Shown here piece by piece: positions 771 to 8,057 of a stretch of 34,726 nt of DNA; positions within the stretch are counted from its first letter, which is position 1, and the number at the start of each line of letters is the position of its first letter. Where the stretch lies: positions 1 through 34,726 of the IMG/VR virus record IMGVR_UViG_3300040985_001649. One strand, 5' to 3'. This stretch comes from a virus. Taxonomy: Duplodnaviria > Caudoviricetes. The position numbers and the translations under genes were made by a program. The notes below the pieces were generated by a model. That model had not been told where the DNA came from. It did no database searches and worked only from the letters and a program-made list of their open reading frames with translations.

Positions 771-1025
771 TCAGGTCGGGCCGCTTATCGGCCCGATGCC
801 GTACCTGTGCGGGTTCAGCCCCCGCGGCCCCACGCGCTTGCCTGGCGCCAGCTTGACCACCAGCCCGTCGGCCACCATCGAGGCCACTGCGTTGCGCATC
901 GTGGTCTCCCCCCACGGAAGGTCAGAGCAAAGGCGAGGCAAGGTCTGCGGCCCGTGGTGCTTGATCCGGCGCAGGATTGCGCCAGCAGCGACCTGCACGG
1001 CCGTGCGCTTCGGCTTGTCGCTCAA
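771..1025 (-). CDS. Small winged-helix DNA-binding protein (putative)
   Basis: AILRRIKHHGPQTLPRLCSDLPWGETTMRNAVASMVADGLVVK...HRYGI fits a wHTH pattern. TTG start at 1025 overlaps the upstream stop; the ORF track extends it to 1127. Confidence 0.6.
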   Translation of the reverse strand: MSDKPKRTAVQVAAGAILRRIKHHGPQTLPRLCSDLPWGETTMRNAVASMVADGLVVKLAPGKRVGPRGLNPHRYGIGPISGPT

Positions 1026-1114
1026 GGCCCTGTCATGCACAGCACGACCAGCACGCCGAAGACGGCCCCAACCAAGGTGAGCAGCACCCACTCTGCCTCC
1101 AGGTGAGCAGGCAT
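1022..1114 (-). CDS. 30-aa single-pass membrane peptide
   Basis: MPAHLEAEWVLLTLVGAVFGVLVVLCMTGP; ATG overlaps the upstream stop (TGATG) and its stop overlaps the next start. Confidence 0.5.
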   Translation of the reverse strand: MPAHLEAEWVLLTLVGAVFGVLVVLCMTGP

Positions 1115-1470
1115 CAGCCCCCCTCATGGGGCGCCGGAATCACACCTGGCATCACCTGCAGCCCATCAACCGCCACCCTGACTGCGGGGTCTGCCATCAG
1201 CAGGTCGGCGTCGCGCGTCCAGTCGATGCCGGCGAGGCTCAGTAGCGCCCCCGTCGCCTCGCTGAATGCACCAGCCCAGCACAGCGCGAACCCTGAGGCC
1301 CGGTGTGTGACGGTCCACCACGTGCCGATGGTATCGCGGTTGACCGCAAGCCCTGGCACTGCGGCGGCCTCGACTCCTGCGGCCGTTATTTCGGCCGGGT
1401 TGTCGGTGTCGCCTGACAGGACGGTGAGCAGGACGGGCAGCCATTCGGCGGTATCAACATACAGGGACAT
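1114..1470 (-). CDS. Hypothetical phage protein
   Basis: MSLYVDTAEWL... start with a GGAG RBS upstream; contains WTVTHRASG; protein-like composition. Confidence 0.65.
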   Translation of the reverse strand: MSLYVDTAEWLPVLLTVLSGDTDNPAEITAAGVEAAAVPGLAVNRDTIGTWWTVTHRASGFALCWAGAFSEATGALLSLAGIDWTRDADLLMADPAVRVAVDGLQVMPGVIPAPHEGG

Positions 1471-1614: not shown

Positions 1615-3689
1615 GTGCCCGCGCCCACCTCGTCCGTCAGTAGGACGATCATGCGCATGCGGCGGCCCCGCTTGAGCGCCGGCTGCCCGTCGGTTGGGCG
1701 GGGCACCAGGATACGGTGCCTGCCCTTCTCGGTCTTAATCCACCCGCGCTGTGCCCATTCTCGGATGATCGAGTCTGGAGTGCCGAAGCCGCGGGCGGTC
1801 AACTCGGCGAACAGCAATTCGGGAATGAATGCGATCTCCCCGTCCTTCTCCCACACGCCGAGCCAGCTCTGGCTCGGGCCGCGCGCTGACCTGCCGACGA
1901 ATCGGTGCGCCTGCGCCCATGCCCACGATTCGGCATACTCAGCCGCCCGCCTGGCCCGGTCATCGGCGCCGCCAACGAGCTGGATCTGCTGCCAGAGCCA
2001 TGCTGGCACGTCGCACTTCGGCTCTTTGACCTCACAGAATCCGTGCACGATCTGGGCGGCGGTGTCGATTACGGCCATGTAGTCGGCAAGGGACCTCACC
2101 ACGCTGTTGCCGAGGCCCTTCCACAGCTCGGCCCGGCGTGCCCGGTACCAGTCGCGCAGCTCCAGCCGCCGCTCGTCCGTCATGTCCACCAGGGCCTGCA
2201 CAGCCCGCGGGTACAGGTGCCCATAGTGCTCAGAGAGCACGGCGCGGATGTTGGTGGAGTCCTCAGCGGTGCGGACGCCAACGTGGCGCAGTTCGAGGAT
2301 GCGGCGGCGCACCCCGTCGTGCGGGCTCCACGCCGTGATCCCCTCCTCAGAGGTGGACAGCAGCACGGTTCGCCAGGAGTCCACGTGCGACATGCCCAGC
2401 CGGCCCAGGGCGCCCTTTGCCCTGCCTGCCCCGCTGATGATGGCGTAGAGCAGCGCGCCTGCCTCCTGGTGGCGGCTGGGCGCTACCAGTTGCCCCTCGT
2501 CCAGACACGTCACCATGTCGCACCGGACGCCCACGCCCGATTCGGTGCCAGCAAGCGAGCCATCCCAGCCAGCCATCACGGCGCCCTTTGCCGGCTTGCC
2601 CAGCGTCGAGGCGGCCAGCTCGAGCACGGTGCTCTTGCCTGATCCGCTCTGGCCTGCGAAGTCGATCCCGAAGTTGGGTGCGCCGAGGATGCGCAGCAGC
2701 GGTGCGGCGACGGCGGCGTAGATGGCCACCCACGGCGCCGGCTGGTCGCTGATGATGTCCAGGGCCACCTGCCACCCCTCCCACGTGCCCTCAGGCCGCA
2801 CAGCGTCGGCAAACTGATCGGCGCCCGCGCTCTGCGTCGCAAAGCTGACCCGGTGAGCCGGCTCCTCGCCCTCATAGATGCAGGTCTTGCCCAGCAGGTA
2901 GAAGCGGGCGGTCTCACCCACCCACCCACAGCGGGCCGCGCTCCAATCCGAGGGCATGCCCGGCTGCTGGTCGAGGCAGGTCAGCCACTCGACCACCCTC
3001 CGCGACGTCGCCGAGCTCACCGGCAGGCCCTGGTCGGCCAGGCGGACGAGGGCGCGGGAGTCCAGGGCGGTGGAGCGCGGCACGATGGCCGTCTGCCACC
3101 TGCGGCCGTTCCACCACGCCAACTCCACGGAATAGGTCTCGTCGTCGGCGTCGCGCAACTTGCGGGTGATGAGCACGGGCAGGCCCACGGCTTCGCTGGC
3201 GGTGCCCTGCGGTGTGTTCTTGGTCCGCGACAGTTGGGTGGGCCCGAGGTGCCACGGCGCGGGCACCACGACCCCTGCCGGGTACTCTGGCCAGTCCACG
3301 GCGGCGCGCACTTCGAGCTCTTCGCCCTCACCGACCAGCCGAAGCGCCTTTTTGACGTCATCGCGCCGGGCCTGCGCCAACCGGGTGCGCAGTTGGTCGC
3401 TCATCCTAGTGGTGAGCACGCCAGCCAACCGCATCAGCTCGGCCTCGATCTCTGCCCCCCGGTCGATGCTGGACAGCATCACGGCACGGAACCGCGGCGG
3501 GTCTTGGTAGAGGTCTACCAGGGGCTTGGTGCGCTGGGCGCTGGGGGCGTCCTCCTCGATGGTGGCGATGGCGTCAACCACGGCGGCGAGTGTTCGCACC
3601 CCATCGGGCCTGCTCACCACTTCGCCTAGGTCGGACAGGGCGTCAGCCCCGTACAGCTTCATCACTTCGTCTGCATCACGGACGGCCAT
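1611..3689 (-). CDS. DUF927-domain replicative helicase (primase-associated AAA+ ATPase)
   Basis: DUF927-like LADQGLPV...CGWV segment, Walker A GQSGSGKST, Walker B CLDE, GxGR and LLSTSE motifs. ATG at 3689 overlaps the primase stop (TGATG); the track start is 3716. Confidence 0.85.
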   Translation of the reverse strand: MAVRDADEVMKLYGADALSDLGEVVSRPDGVRTLAAVVDAIATIEEDAPSAQRTKPLVDLYQDPPRFRAVMLSSIDRGAEIEAELMRLAGVLTTRMSDQLRTRLAQARRDDVKKALRLVGEGEELEVRAAVDWPEYPAGVVVPAPWHLGPTQLSRTKNTPQGTASEAVGLPVLITRKLRDADDETYSVELAWWNGRRWQTAIVPRSTALDSRALVRLADQGLPVSSATSRRVVEWLTCLDQQPGMPSDWSAARCGWVGETARFYLLGKTCIYEGEEPAHRVSFATQSAGADQFADAVRPEGTWEGWQVALDIISDQPAPWVAIYAAVAAPLLRILGAPNFGIDFAGQSGSGKSTVLELAASTLGKPAKGAVMAGWDGSLAGTESGVGVRCDMVTCLDEGQLVAPSRHQEAGALLYAIISGAGRAKGALGRLGMSHVDSWRTVLLSTSEEGITAWSPHDGVRRRILELRHVGVRTAEDSTNIRAVLSEHYGHLYPRAVQALVDMTDERRLELRDWYRARRAELWKGLGNSVVRSLADYMAVIDTAAQIVHGFCEVKEPKCDVPAWLWQQIQLVGGADDRARRAAEYAESWAWAQAHRFVGRSARGPSQSWLGVWEKDGEIAFIPELLFAELTARGFGTPDSIIREWAQRGWIKTEKGRHRILVPRPTDGQPALKRGRRMRMIVLLTDEVGAGT

Positions 3690-4636
3690 CAGGCTCTCCA
3701 GCGGGAAATTGTGCATCTGTCGTCGAGCGTCCTGGCCACCTGCTCAGCGTACCGCTCGCCTGCCTTGTCGGCGTCTGTGGCGAGCACGACCCGGGCCCCG
3801 TCAGGCACCCGGTCGGCGTGTTGTGGCGTCCACCATCCCGACCCGATCCCAATGACCGCGGCGCCCGGCTTGGCGGCGCTCCATGCCAGGAAGGCCGGCT
3901 CGCCCTCGGTGATGATGACCACTCTCGGGCGCTGCTTGCCCTGCAGCATCAGCACGGCGTCGCGGTTGGCCAGGACGAGGCCCGCGCCGGCGCAGCCAGT
4001 GGGGCCCACAGCCTTGGGCCCATCGCCGGGTCGGATGCGCCGAGCTCGCCACCCGCGGTGATGGCCCATCGCATCCCACGTCGGAAAGAGAGCGCGCAGG
4101 CCCTGGTCGTACCAGCCCCGGCCGCGGAGCCGCATCCAGCCGAAGCGGGCCGAGGGGCACAGCGCGCGCACCAGGCCGACAGCTCGCGGCGACGGGTCAG
4201 GGCCCAGCCGGTCAGCGAGCCAGAGCATCACGGCGCGGTCTCGATGGGCGGGCATCGTCCTGGCCACGCTGTCGTCGATCTCGTTGCGCGGCACCATCAG
4301 CAGCGGCGGGGCTTCGGGCATGGCGGCAGCGCTGGCGGTGGTGTTGCCCCATCCGTTCCACTCGCGGACCACCTTCTGGCCGTTGTAGCGGTCGCCAGCG
4401 AGGCAGAACGCGACGGCGTCGATTGCGTCGCCCCACTCTTCGCACGACCAGCACCGCCACCGGCCCGACCTTGTGACGGTTGCGGGCAGCCGCTTGTCGC
4501 CATCACCACGTCGCTGGGCCTTGCACGCTGGGCAGACCAGAGAGGTGCGGCGCCCCATTCGGACAGCCAATCCCAGAGCGGCGGCCACCTGGTGGATGGG
4601 TGTCTGGCGGGCCTCTTCGAGCCATGAGGTGGTCAC
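3689..4636 (-). CDS. DNA primase (N-terminal zinc finger + TOPRIM)
   Basis: CPAC...WRCWSC...GDAID zinc-binding domain; TOPRIM IITEGE and LATDADKAG motifs; directly upstream of the DUF927 helicase. Confidence 0.85.
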
Positions 4637-6492
4637 GAAGCACCGCCAAAGAGGTCGGCCTGCTCACCGCCGATCAGGGCCTTGTCGCGCATCGCGTCGA
4701 TCTTGATCGCCCTCTCGCACACAAGCCGGGCTCGGGCGTCGGGCTCAAAGTTGCACGTTACCCACTCGCTCTGCTGCTTGCTAAACGTGCGCTTTTGGCC
4801 CACCCGCATCGCCGTAATCTCGACCGCGTGCCAGCCGTCCGCCATCAGTTCGGGGATGGGCTCGGCCTCGGACACCATGCACCGGGCGCCAGCGTCGGAC
4901 CATCGGCGGATAGTCGCGACCTGCTCATTCCGTGCGAAGACGTTGGCATATCCGGTGGTGTTTTCGTAGGGGCCATCCATGTAGACGAGCACATCGCGCA
5001 GGTTTACGTGGCCCCCACCGTATGGTATGGTGGCACTACAACAAAGGAGCCCCCCATGGAATGGCGAACCATCGCAGAAGCCCCCGAGTACCGCGTCAGC
5101 AGCGCCGGAGAGATCCGGTCCACCTACACGAATCGGCCATTGACTGGAGGGCGAGACAAAGACGGATACCGGAGGCTCGTTCTCTGCACAGCCGGCGGCC
5201 GAATCCACCGACGATTCAGCGCCCTTGTCTGCGCGGCGTTCCACGGAGCCCGGCCCGTCGGGGCAGTTGTGCGCCATCTTGACGGCACCAGAGACAATGA
5301 CAGGGCCGACAACCTCGCATGGGGCACCCAAGCCGAGAACATCGCAGACAAGGCCCTGCACGGCACCGACCAGAGGGGAGAGCGCCATCCGCGCGCGAAG
5401 GTCACCGAGGACGACGTGCGGGCCATCCGCGCCAGCATTGAGCCCCTTCGTGTTCTCGCTGACCGGTACGGGGTGGCGCCTTGCAGTATCAGCGCAATCC
5501 GGCACCGGCGCAACTGGGCTCACGTCGAGTAGCCCCAACACGCCCCACGGGTCGAGCGTGCGGGCGTCGTCGTGGATGGTGGAGGGGAGGCCGCGCGGGT
5601 CGCGCTCCGTGGCCGTGGCCGTGGCCGTGGCCGTGGTGTCTTGTCTGCGCTCGCCCGGCCCGACAAAACCGGTGCGCACGTTGCCTTGTTCATACGACCA
5701 GACCGCGCGCTGAATCCACCGCCCAACCTCCCGCGCATCCACCGGCGGGCACACCGCGGGCCCCTCCGCCCGCAACCGTTCCCACAACGCCCGCGGGTCT
5801 TCGTCTGCCCAGGACCGGATGATGGCCGCCGCCTCTCTGGCCAACTTCGCATCCCGGTAGGCGTGCAACAGCAGGCGCGCCCCATCGTCCGGCTCGCAAA
5901 AAATGTACCGCTCTGCCTTGTCGCCCGGCTGGAGCCCAGCCAGCGCCAGAATCACGTCAGCGTAGCCGGATTTGCTGCCCATCCGTGAGACGGGCGGTCG
6001 TGCTTTGGCCCGCTCAAGTCGCAAAGACAGGGCAGCGGTGCCGGCGCACAGTTCGACCAGGAGCGGGATGGCGCACTGGCGGGGCGGTGGTGTCGTGGTG
6101 AGTAGGTCGGGCATGGTTTCGCTATCCGGATGTATTGGTGGACACGCCCATCGATCGCGCATTGTGTCGTCCCCAACGAGAACGCGAGAGATCCCGCGGG
6201 GGCTGGCGTTACACTTGCTACTGATCCCCTTTGGGGCAGGCATGAACCGATCAGCGGCGGGGCCTTTATTGCCTGCCACAAACAGCCACCGCGCCACCTC
6301 TCGCGCATCGACACCCATCGCCATCTCCTCGAATGCGTCGGCCAGTTTGCCGATCGGTGTGCAGAACTCAGCCCCGCCGAATGTGGAGCCGCCCGCGCCC
6401 GTGTTGCGCCATGTCCGCGAGTCCAGGCTAATCAGCCGGTTGGCGGTCACGATGCGCGCCCATCTGGCCACTTCTCGCGGGCCGACCCTCAT
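4633..6492 (-). CDS. Dam/D12-like N6-adenine DNA methyltransferase with extra TRD-like segments and a ~180-aa antisense-HNH-derived insert
   Basis: [10 protein letters not shown] (SAM-binding motif I), [14 protein letters not shown] (motif X-like), IFCEPD (motif II), VLVYMDGPY (DPPY-like motif IV), MVSE, EWVTCNF C-terminal motif; ATGA overlaps with both neighbours. Confidence 0.8.
5003..5049 (+). promoter_or_regulatory. Sigma70-like promoter and RBS of the nested HNH gene
   Basis: TTTACG (5003-5008), 17 bp spacer, TATGGT (5026-5031) with extended -10 TG; AAAGGAG ahead of the ATG at 5056. Confidence 0.7.
5056..5532 (+). CDS. NUMOD4-HNH homing endonuclease with C-terminal HTH
   Basis: MEWRTI...[11 protein letters not shown]...GYRRLVL (NUMOD4); [23 protein letters not shown] (HNH); [18 protein letters not shown]...LADRYGV..SISAIR..NW (HTH); strong RBS. 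Confidence 0.92.
5607..5636. repeat. (CCGTGG)5 in-frame hexamer tandem repeat
   Basis: Five perfect copies; encodes the TATATATAT stretch of the methyltransferase. Confidence 0.95.
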
Positions 6493-8057
6493 GCCGTCTT
6501 CTTCTTGAGGCGGTCAATGCGCCGGCCCAGCTTGTGCACAGACTTGCACGCAGCTTCACCGGGCACGTCGCCGCCCACCCGAAGCGCGCCAGGGTCCCAC
6601 TGCAGGCGCCACGGCTCGGACTGGCCCAACCGTCCAGCCTCGACTCGGGCCCACCTCGACCCGCCGTAGAGCACGTCGAGCAGGTCTGCCACCTGGCCAC
6701 GGGTCAGCACCCACGGCACCTTCGATAGGGCCTTGATTGGGTCGCGGCACTCGCCCGGTATGTGCCGGGTCAGCTTCGACGCGCCCTTGACCGCTGCGAC
6801 TTGTTTGGCAGAGACCGGCGCGAGTTGCCAGCCACCAGGGGCCACCGTCCGCGGTGGGCAGATCCCGGCCCGCTCCAGCTCAGCCCGGGCGCGGCGCAGG
6901 TACGCCAGCAGCACGTCGAGTGCCAGCGCTTCGTCCTCGCGCGGCTCCGTCGGCCCACGTGCGGCGGTGGGCTCTGCGGCCTCGGCCTCGGCAGCCTCCT
7001 CCATGGCCTGCCCGATGGCTTCCGGTGTCGTCCACCCAAACCGGCCCAGGAGCAGGTGAGGGTCGAGCACCACCCCGTCGGTCTTCGTTCCCCATTGCGG
7101 GTCAGGTTCACGGTCGACCCGCAGCACCCGGCCGACTTCCTGAAGGAAGCGCACAGACGCCTGCACATTTCGCCTCAGGCAGAGCCACCGGAGCCAGGGC
7201 AGGTCGACACCCTCAGAGAGCAGAGCCACGTGCACGATGGCGCGCAGTTGGCCGGTGCGTAGCCTCTCCAGCCGTGCGTCCTGCTCGGTCGTCGTCAGCC
7301 TGCTGTGGACGGCCTCAGCGGGCCAACCGTTGGCGGTGAGCCATTCGGCGTGCTCTTCGGCGTCGTCGATGCTGGTGGCGGACGTGATGCCGGGCCCGTC
7401 GGCGTGTTCGTTCATCATTGCCAGGCACGCCTCGTCAATCGGCACGCCGTCGCTGCCCTGCCAGCGCTCGACTCTGGGCGGCACCAGCACGCGGTCGCGC
7501 ACGGCGTCCTCGATGCCATACCGGTAGTGAACGCAGTCGAAGAGACTCACCGTCTGCGTGGGCACCGACCGAAAGGGCGTCGCGGTGAACCCGACCAGGG
7601 CGGCGGGCTTCAACTCGGGCACCGTGTCCCGCACGCTGGCGGCCTCAGACCGGTGGGCCTCGTCCACGATGAGCAGGGCCACCCGCTTGCCCAGGCTGGC
7701 AAGTTCCACGTGGAGCGTGGGCAGGGAGTTGTTGCAGCAGACGATGACGGGCCGCACTTGCTTCTTCTTGCCGTACCACCGGCCCACGCGACCCCGGCCC
7801 AGCCGCCCGGCCATCGTGTCGGCGAGCTGGTCGACCAGCCGCTGCCGGGGTGCGCAGACGATGATTACTCGGTCGCCCAGGTTGGCGTGGGCCATGCGTA
7901 CCAGTTCGGCCTGGAGTATGGACTTTCCGGCGCCCATCACCGCGCAGACGATGCCGCGGCGCTTCTTGCGCACGTTGCCGATGATGATGGGCAGGGCCTT
8001 GGCTTGCCAGTCGCGAGGGGGCCACTCTGCGCCCTGCCAGGGGATGATCTCAGCCAT
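6489..8057 (-). CDS. Superfamily 2 DEAH/ResIII-like helicase
   Basis: PRDWQ (Q motif), MGAGKS, IVDEAH, GFTATP, LSEGVDLP, QEVGRVLR. Confidence 0.93.
   Translation of the reverse strand: MAEIIPWQGAEWPPRDWQAKALPIIIGNVRKKRRGIVCAVMGAGKSILQAELVRMAHANLGDRVIIVCAPRQRLVDQLADTMAGRLGRGRVGRWYGKKKQVRPVIVCCNNSLPTLHVELASLGKRVALLIVDEAHRSEAASVRDTVPELKPAALVGFTATPFRSVPTQTVSLFDCVHYRYGIEDAVRDRVLVPPRVERWQGSDGVPIDEACLAMMNEHADGPGITSATSIDDAEEHAEWLTANGWPAEAVHSRLTTTEQDARLERLRTGQLRAIVHVALLSEGVDLPWLRWLCLRRNVQASVRFLQEVGRVLRVDREPDPQWGTKTDGVVLDPHLLLGRFGWTTPEAIGQAMEEAAEAEAAEPTAARGPTEPREDEALALDVLLAYLRRARAELERAGICPPRTVAPGGWQLAPVSAKQVAAVKGASKLTRHIPGECRDPIKALSKVPWVLTRGQVADLLDVLYGGSRWARVEAGRLGQSEPWRLQWDPGALRVGGDVPGEAACKSVHKLGRRIDRLKKKTA

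Follow-up and report, generated by a model that had tools for sequence, protein, structure and literature searches.

The stretch of DNA considered here, which we call the window, covers positions 1 to 34,726 of the Caudoviricetes record IMGVR_UViG_3300040985_001649, a virus genome that is about 55% complete. One of its genes encodes a 619-residue protein which, on the evidence of structural models, is predicted to belong to a phage family of DNA amino-methyltransferases with the Dam/DpnM fold. The gene carries three cassettes, one in an internal slot and two at the N terminus, and each cassette is predicted to amount to the second half of the target-recognition domain (TRD) plus the strand beta3, that is, an anchor helix, a hairpin region, a further helix and beta3. 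The reading we favour, with a probability of roughly 0.55, is that the cassettes are used as alternative specificities by one Dam-fold enzyme, docking one at a time on a single core; each cassette likely reads a different DNA sequence. That cassettes are traded among phages by recombination at conserved flanks we regard as very probable.

Every cassette in the gene opens with a short anchor, REV[AG]RW. A six-frame translation of the whole 34.7-kb window contains this motif three times, and all three lie inside the open reading frame (ORF) at 4633-6492 on the minus strand, as the original prediction had it: GPREVARW at 6460-6483 (aa 4-11), a second anchor at 6286-6312 (aa 61-69) and a third at 5716-5742 (aa 251-259), the latter two sitting one base from where they had been placed. 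Chance is ruled out as their source, about 1e-4 occurrences being expected per 619 residues, and a repeat finder groups the three into one family (D2). Anchors 2 and 3 share 23 of 27 nucleotides, the figure claimed at the outset; anchors 1 and 2 share 20, and 1 and 3 share 16. The accompanying claim that cassettes 2 and 3 end alike holds only in part: cassette 3 has the full family tail LPSTIHDDA and cassette 2 retains only the remnant IHPD; cassette 1 has no tail at all. The two upstream cassettes do lie N-terminal to motif I and in frame with it, and the methylase ATG overlaps the helicase stop (ATGA), both as described before; at the other end the last four methylase bases overlap the start of the primase ORF. 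GAGGAG and in-frame ATGs precede cassette 2, which may have a translation start of its own, and Met127 is a candidate internal start of the core. Cassette 1 occurs just once in the window, and 4600-6700 contains no sigma-70 promoter match.

The repertoire of relatives carries much of the argument. Residues 140-312 of the window protein, used as query, returned 666 proteins of 340-1084 aa, 404 shorter proteins and 345 cluster representatives from a collection clustered at 90% identity. The best-listed 378 proteins were taken for parsing and 192 could be parsed; in 57 more, both motifs were present and no first anchor could be recognised, and in the remainder the patterns used did not find one of the motifs. 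A fixed single architecture would have spoken against exchangeable modules, and it is not what the family has: relatives carry one to five internal and none to two N-terminal cassettes. Among the parsed proteins, in proportions biased by the length windows and best-hit lists, 77 have one internal cassette, 62 two, 30 three, five four and four five, while 14 have one or two N-terminal cassettes; 115 of the 192 have between two and five. Their 368 cassettes fall into 113 families (55% identity, single linkage), 62 of them singletons, and the Chao1 estimate is about 240 families. The search of relatives for the same cassettes in other slots and other numbers, proposed when the cassettes were first noticed, found both. 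Cassette 1 belongs to a family of 58 members, 47 of which occupy internal slots, and cassette 2 to a family of three, whose two members in relatives (P0090 and P0120) are both internal, so neither N-terminal segment is without an internal counterpart. The family of cassette 3 has 69 members, a count inflated by the presence of cassette 3 in the query.

Proteins with closely similar cores often differ in their cassettes. In 209 pairs of proteins (187 proteins) both core halves are at least 90% identical, yet only eight pairs have the same list of internal cassettes and 155 have no family in common; P0009 and P0013 have identical cores and carry three and two cassettes, respectively. Sharing of a cassette at 80% identity or more tracks core identity, being found in 42 of 214 pairs at 95% or above, in 1 of 3153 at 60-70% and in 0 of 440 below that, and in 79 of the 191 pairs that share one in this way it sits in different slots. 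On a core tree of 194 rows the state changes between multiple and single cassettes about 50 times, and the N-terminal state changes 12 times, at least four of these forced by well-supported branches; slot N2 has itself been exchanged between relatives. Since there is just one near-duplicate cassette pair in the 115 multi-cassette proteins, arrays collect different cassettes and are not tandem duplications. Junctions can also be seen in DNA. One seawater contig, with six differences over 6289-6462 (168 of 174 nucleotides identical over cassette 1), diverges from the window at 6289, directly after the Arg codon of the second anchor, at the anchor end; several related seawater contigs diverge at 5716, after the third anchor. 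These contigs come from related phages and not from the clone of the window (five read runs contain only 5-6% of the window's words, and no RNA run is listed as containing them), and because of this they say nothing about switching within a clone. Two proteins deserve mention beside these junctions: P0262 has another long insert that starts directly after an anchor, and in P0382 a cassette of the cassette-1 type is joined straight to the last 25 residues of the methylase, resembling a deletion product.

The flanking DNA of the cassettes was compared at four-fold degenerate sites in 94 distinct genes examined at the DNA level. Identity in anchors and tails is 61% from one gene to another and 75-77% inside a single gene, whereas motif I reaches 35% and motif IV 48%. 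In 40 multi-cassette genes the cassettes are linked by exact direct repeats of 9-60 nucleotides. The synonymous sites are skewed, with G at 410 of 560 first-anchor sites (233 expected) and C at 582 of 722 tail sites (276 expected), and the skew is present even in single-cassette genes. In the window it can be read at 5743-5790 and 5560-5600, where G prevails ahead of and within the anchor and C within the tail, with equivalents in the 94 genes. With G-rich third positions in the anchors and C-rich ones in the tails, the two flanks look like an imperfect inverted repeat, and their pairing is computed at -17.6 kcal/mol against -14.5 in synonymously recoded controls. Runs of third-position skew are present in other genes of the window too, so skew alone is not unique. 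A hairpin specific to each gene, formed by its own anchor and tail, is unsupported: within-gene covariation was no better than in permuted pairs (148 of 200 permutations as good; 42 of 200 for a tail with the next anchor), and cassette 3 folds no better than its shuffles (z +1.27). The Chi-like GGTGGCG was also set aside, its 39 copies against 19 in dinucleotide shuffles shrinking to 39 against 35 under a higher-order model, with no excess in 321 kb of locus flanks. The neighbours of 22 loci (82 genes roughly called, 75 scanned) are mostly replication and recombination genes; an integrase, an invertase, a reverse transcriptase or a restriction gene was not found among those scanned. The simplest route of exchange would be homologous recombination at the flanks.

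The assignment to the Dam/DpnM fold comes from relatives. A Pfam scan gave no match to the window protein, D12 (PF02086) included, and PHROGs gave a single weak methyltransferase match; a viral scan with the N-terminal 140 residues found nothing, and a single-sequence PDB search with the N-half returned only chance antibody matches. Of 97 single-cassette relatives, 40 match D12 at E <=0.5 (best 9e-5; P0264 scores 12.3 bits where the curated cut-off is 22), and PF02086 is given to Atlas neighbours, 82-100% of them viral, at 0.93-0.94. A profile of the 97 matches DpnM with an E of 0.004, aligning the anchor with the QRAARILY helix, the variable part with the hairpin stretch that follows and the tail with the strand before DPPY. 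The third cassette had been placed at the position of the Dam recognition domain from the outset, and it does map onto the Dam/DpnM recognition helix and hairpin. The model of the single-cassette relative P0264 (predicted local distance difference test score, pLDDT, 90.7) has the seven-stranded catalytic domain with an inserted helical TRD. Foldseek matched it to DpnM at 1e-8, then to M.CbeI and EcoDam, with T4Dam also among the matches, and VIA, with M.CbeI on top, gave Z 13-16 and a root-mean-square deviation of about 3 Å over some 200 residues, the next fold reaching 8.8; sequence identity to these enzymes is 10-16%. The motif order I - TRD - IV, by which PMC7544214 defines the alpha class, holds in the window protein (ELCAGT at aa 147-152, cassette 3 at aa 251-315, YMDGPY at aa 504-509). 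Motif IV is DPPY in most relatives, and the DGPY variant is found in the window and several others. The window core and cassette 3 are modelled confidently (cassette 3 at pLDDT 87-97) and the insert that follows is disordered. The product may be N6-methyladenine (m6A) or N4-methylcytosine (m4C), since M.CbeI, of the same fold, is an N4-cytosine enzyme (PMC3425538). At 5980-6060 on the minus strand motif I apparently stands ahead of a motif-X-like SRMGxK segment, opposite to the order in Dam; the structural alignment with Dam begins at model residue 26 and Dam residues 1-3, which suggests that motif I precedes that segment.

Several observations bear on whether the extra cassettes are used. The ratio of non-synonymous to synonymous polymorphism (pN/pS) is 0.16 for first slots (two pairs), 0.27 for middle (six), 0.16 for last (three) and 0.26 for single cassettes (seven); an earlier run with an amino-acid filter gave 0.15-0.41. 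The middle slots of L017 and L018 differ by 11.5 synonymous and 2.5 non-synonymous changes. Cassettes in the middle slot are under purifying selection. The family of cassette 1 sits in a middle or N-terminal slot in 34 of its 58 members and is the sole cassette in three, yet it is well conserved. Upstream cassettes are fused in frame in eight of ten cases seen at the DNA level, the exceptions being L109, which is frameshifted, and L053, where the cassette is a separate ORF. When cassette 1 was docked on the two core halves of the window protein it scored 0.55, the best control reaching 0.00 (contacts agreeing at 79% or more between runs, partner pLDDT at least 53), which is weak support: 116 of 157 solved pairs passed the docking mark, as did 2 of 215 mismatched ones, with 18 of the solved and both mismatches at or below 0.60, and pieces of one gene may pass through their likeness to solved Dam folds. 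Cassettes also exist on their own. Among 18,215 ORFs (the window and 204 partly redundant loci) five bear a cassette and no core. Free-standing cassette genes encode 60-70 residues and lie beside the methylase; either their stop and start codons overlap with those of the neighbouring gene or they have a strong ribosome site. Those at L088:1774-1989(+) and L108, about 808-1014 and 1004-1127(+), lie directly behind the methylase with stop and start codons overlapping, and another is L053:3989-4189(+); the proteins P0379 and P0383, cassettes of 62-65 aa and nothing else, are of the cassette-1 type (two of five matches). In L088 a copy of the last 25 codons of the methylase comes after the free cassette.

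Under the reading we prefer, the cassettes would take turns docking on one catalytic core, so that several target sequences would be methylated. By analogy with Dam topology, beta3 would be the edge strand carrying motif III, in which case any one cassette could supply the missing part of the fold with the rest looped out. The default module of the window would be cassette 3; cassettes 1 and 2 would be alternatives on a tether and, since the core has retained a Met of its own, might occur in longer isoforms alone. Cassettes would be gained, lost and replaced through homologous recombination in the conserved DNA of anchors and tails, chiefly among close relatives and with the general recombination proteins of phages, and the purpose would be protection from host restriction enzymes. 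Palindromes are scarce in the window (AGGCCT 2 against 34 expected, CCCGGG 16 against 41, GTCGAC 32 against 61, CTAG 32 against 112, GATC 228 against 358), the avoidance being strong in the whole window and in the 321 kb of flanks; it is a sign of restriction pressure and might help to map the targets of cassettes.

Several points weigh against this reading. The N-terminal slot has the highest pN/pS, 0.40 (from two pairs only), identity filters bias the ratio low in both runs, and selection may predate the present slot, having acted while the cassette sat elsewhere. In L109 the upstream cassette is out of frame with the core, apparently through a 1-nt shift, and L075 and L127 contain internal stops. 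Since cassette 1 is without the beta3 tail and cassette 2 has only its remnant, neither can replace the whole unit, and in the whole-protein model the two reach a pLDDT of only 30-54. The window copy may be weak or dead because it has DGPY in place of DPPY plus an insert of 180 residues. Of 15 proteins that have N-terminal cassettes, 13 retain a Met belonging to the core, which counts against the use of those cassettes and also fits alternative isoforms. Finally, clustering at 90% removes pairs of the same architecture and so inflates the contrast between cores and cassettes, and neither pairs nor cassettes are independent of descent.

Some of these points would be expected if only one slot were active and the other cassettes were stored spares, moved in or deleted by recombination between anchor or tail repeats in the manner of phase variation. 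The direct repeats joining cassettes would serve such a system, as would the imperfect inverted repeat at the flanks; P0009 and P0013 look like the outcome of a one-cassette deletion, the model leaves the N-terminal cassettes unplaced, and the free cassette of L108 retains both flank motifs. We nevertheless think it unlikely, since middle-slot cassettes are under purifying selection and storage has no need of in-frame fusion or coupled start codons. The commonest family is mostly middle or N-terminal (18 of 20 in the middle of three-cassette arrays), and neither a dedicated recombinase nor a reverse transcriptase, such as goes with the cassette switches of shufflons, the tvr locus and DGRs, was found among the 75 neighbours of the 22 loci. 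It is less likely still that internal arrays work while the N-terminal cassettes of the window are relics, former small genes or by-products of recombination fused to a core that starts at Met127, in a copy that the HNH insert may also have crippled. The lost or decayed tails, the low pLDDT and the frameshift in L109 would all follow from that, and proteins with N-terminal cassettes have a Met within 30 residues of motif I in 13 of 15 cases, compared with 106 of 349 control segments; an antisense frame would stay open for 180 codons by chance about 25% of the time in this register. Yet the columns of N-terminal cassette-1 copies are conserved like those of internal ones (Spearman 0.65), N-terminal cassettes recur in several core lineages, the exchange at slot N2 argues the same way, and the insert is open and in frame in seven proteins of one HNH family and likewise in L026, P0145 and P0167 of a second. 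We give little credence to the idea that extra cassettes merely tune the enzyme, as non-specific grips on DNA, relaxers of specificity or competitors. The family of cassette 1 could be such a helper: it is seldom alone (3 of 58; Fisher p 7e-4, on cases that are not independent), is found preferentially in the middle slot, commonly has a degenerate tail and also occurs as a free protein of 62-65 aa. A cassette of this type is, however, the sole internal one in P0137, P0233, P0372, L081 and L084, and the other 112 families are too varied for a generic helper role. Taking turns on one core is the reading we retain, and a wider version of it is possible, if doubtful when taken whole: the half-domain would be able to dock whether it is part of an internal array, tethered at the N terminus or supplied in trans as a free protein of 60-70 residues encoded next door, well over 100 such parts would circulate among aquatic phages by way of the G-rich and C-rich flank signals, and antisense HNH genes would hijack the same socket.

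Those HNH genes are a subject of their own. The original prediction had an HNH gene adjacent to the methylase and thought that it could promote exchange. It is in fact nested antisense inside the methylase ORF, after cassette 3 and before motif IV, with the methylase frame open across it, and a part in exchange is unsupported: it looks like a passenger, and only the window and L036 among the genes examined at the DNA level carry this NUMOD4-HNH_3 family. The insert is about 545 nucleotides long, 477 of them HNH ORF, and in the window and L036 it begins exactly at the tail-anchor junction. Six other proteins have the same antisense insert as the window, at the identical position between tail and motif IV, which makes seven of one HNH family in frame and free of stops (P0001, P0039, P0095, P0132, P0170, P0181 and P0222), in searches of proteins that detect only open inserts. 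A second HNH_3 family is inserted just after DPPY (L026/P0086, P0145 and P0167). The three inserts seen as DNA, those of the window, L036 (1818-2294, minus strand) and L026 (4991-5539, minus strand), are all open and in frame. One related seawater contig is without the insert (joint 4908-5547), and L095:317-883(-) has an HNH_3 gene within what appears to be a truncated upstream copy of the methylase gene. Rfam gave no match at E <=1 across 4500-6700, and this, with an insert of some 545 nucleotides that is mostly HNH ORF on the opposite strand, rules out a group I intron or intein. The gene is best seen as a passenger lodged in the tolerant loop that houses spare cassettes, and it probably survives because that is where such cassettes would normally loop out. 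Nesting in antisense is a way for a homing endonuclease to occupy a gene without an intron or intein.

Table 1. Layout of the methylase gene and its immediate neighbours in the window (positions in the 34,726-nucleotide stretch).
Feature	Positions	Strand	Basis
Predicted Dam/DpnM-fold (alpha-class) amino-methyltransferase ORF, 619 aa, with three cassettes and an in-frame insert; orphan	4633..6492	-	ORF; family fold; model of window protein
Cassette 1, N-terminal, aa 3-60, of the common 'TANRL...GGxTFGG' family, without beta3 tail	6313..6486	-	58-member family; free-standing P0379, P0383
Cassette 2, N-terminal, aa 61-126	6115..6312	-	Internal in P0090 and P0120; related contig diverges at 6289
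Constant N-half: Met127, motif I ELCAGT (6037-6054, aa 147-152), motif II strand (5887-5901), constant recognition-domain helices	5743..6114	-	Sequence; models
Cassette 3, internal slot, aa 251-315: anchor helix, variable hairpin region, helix, tail strand beta3 (5548-5589)	5548..5742	-	Hidden Markov model alignment to DpnM; pLDDT 87-97
In-frame insert of about 180 codons between tail and motif IV, antisense of HNH gene plus leader, predicted unstructured	5002..5547	-	pLDDT <50 for aa 323-485
NUMOD4 + HNH_3 endonuclease gene, 158 aa, AAGGAG at 5044-5049, nested antisense in methylase	5056..5532	+	Pfam; PHROGs; sequence
Constant C-half, motif IV YMDGPY (4966-4983, aa 504-509)	4633..5001	-	Sequence; model
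Superfamily-2 helicase, upstream, stop overlaps methylase ATG	6489..8057	-	ORF; Pfam
Toprim primase, downstream, overlaps methylase stop	3689..4636	-	ORF; Pfam; PHROGs

Beyond the helicase and primase, the window encodes an exonuclease VIII-like protein, a RecU-like resolvase and a tape-measure gene. No hsd or restriction gene was found among the window proteins scanned with Pfam and PHROGs or among the 75 neighbours scanned. A second, unrelated methylase (N6_N4_Mtase or Dam PF05869) lies within two genes at L065:2104-2820, L114:66-635 and L137:2639-3760. The loci derive from viral and metagenome contigs, just six coming from genome assemblies, all of them short contigs of metagenome-assembled genomes, and cultured phages gave three weak partial matches, all to Arthrobacter phages. 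Within cassette 3, at 5608-5637, a 6-nt repeat encodes a Thr-Ala run whose length differs among relatives, and a longer run occurs in a different cassette in L108. Positions 1-60 of the window translate to what we take to be Nextera adapter read-through, and the left end of the contig is probably an assembly artefact.

The closest precedents come from two directions. Orphan C5 cytosine methyltransferases of Bacillus phages (SPR, phi3T, rho11, H2) gain several specificities from tandem TRDs (PMC8936443, PMC12707154), and a title cited in PMC8936443 places the TRDs of M.phiBssHII at separated locations. Like them, the window family has an orphan phage enzyme with several recognition modules in tandem on one core, as in the 115 multi-cassette proteins and the 14 with N-terminal cassettes. 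M.phiBssHII is also said to have an N-terminal TRD and two isoforms. The C5 enzymes, however, use a Pro-Cys motif IV chemistry, whereas the window family has D(P/G)PY and its best fold matches are amino-methyltransferases. Unlike theirs, its unit is modelled to include a strand of the catalytic sheet, comes in at least 113 sampled families and exists as free-standing genes. The family appears to work like the multispecific C5 methylases without being one of them, its motif and predicted fold being alpha-class. E. coli Dam, T4 Dam, DpnM and M.CbeI have the same motif order and predicted fold, and the cassette covers their helix and hairpin region (in E. coli Dam five helices form the bundle of the DNA-binding domain, whose hairpin spans residues 118-139; PMC10073500), but each has one fixed TRD where the window family has variable cassettes. 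The second precedent is domain movement (DoMo) in the Type I/IIG S subunits of Helicobacter pylori, where TRDs flanked by repeats x and y shift slots and change in number by recombination (PMC3077401). The same domain in different slots and changes of copy number between flanking repeats are common to both systems. DoMo, in contrast, moves whole domains of a separate S subunit that act together on a bipartite site, while the unit here is a half-domain inside a methylase of monomeric type, phage-borne and without a restriction partner.

Open-licence PMC and bioRxiv yielded no description of the window methylase family, and multispecificity by arrayed modules, described there for C5 methylases, was not found in them among Dam-fold amino-methylases. 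With one constant core and at least 113 cassette families, the way in which a Dam-type hairpin encodes its target becomes testable at scale, and if our reading is true the system could yield a programmable m6A or m4C writer. For the phages themselves it would mean a fast route to track host restriction, with one gene shielding against several host restriction enzymes.

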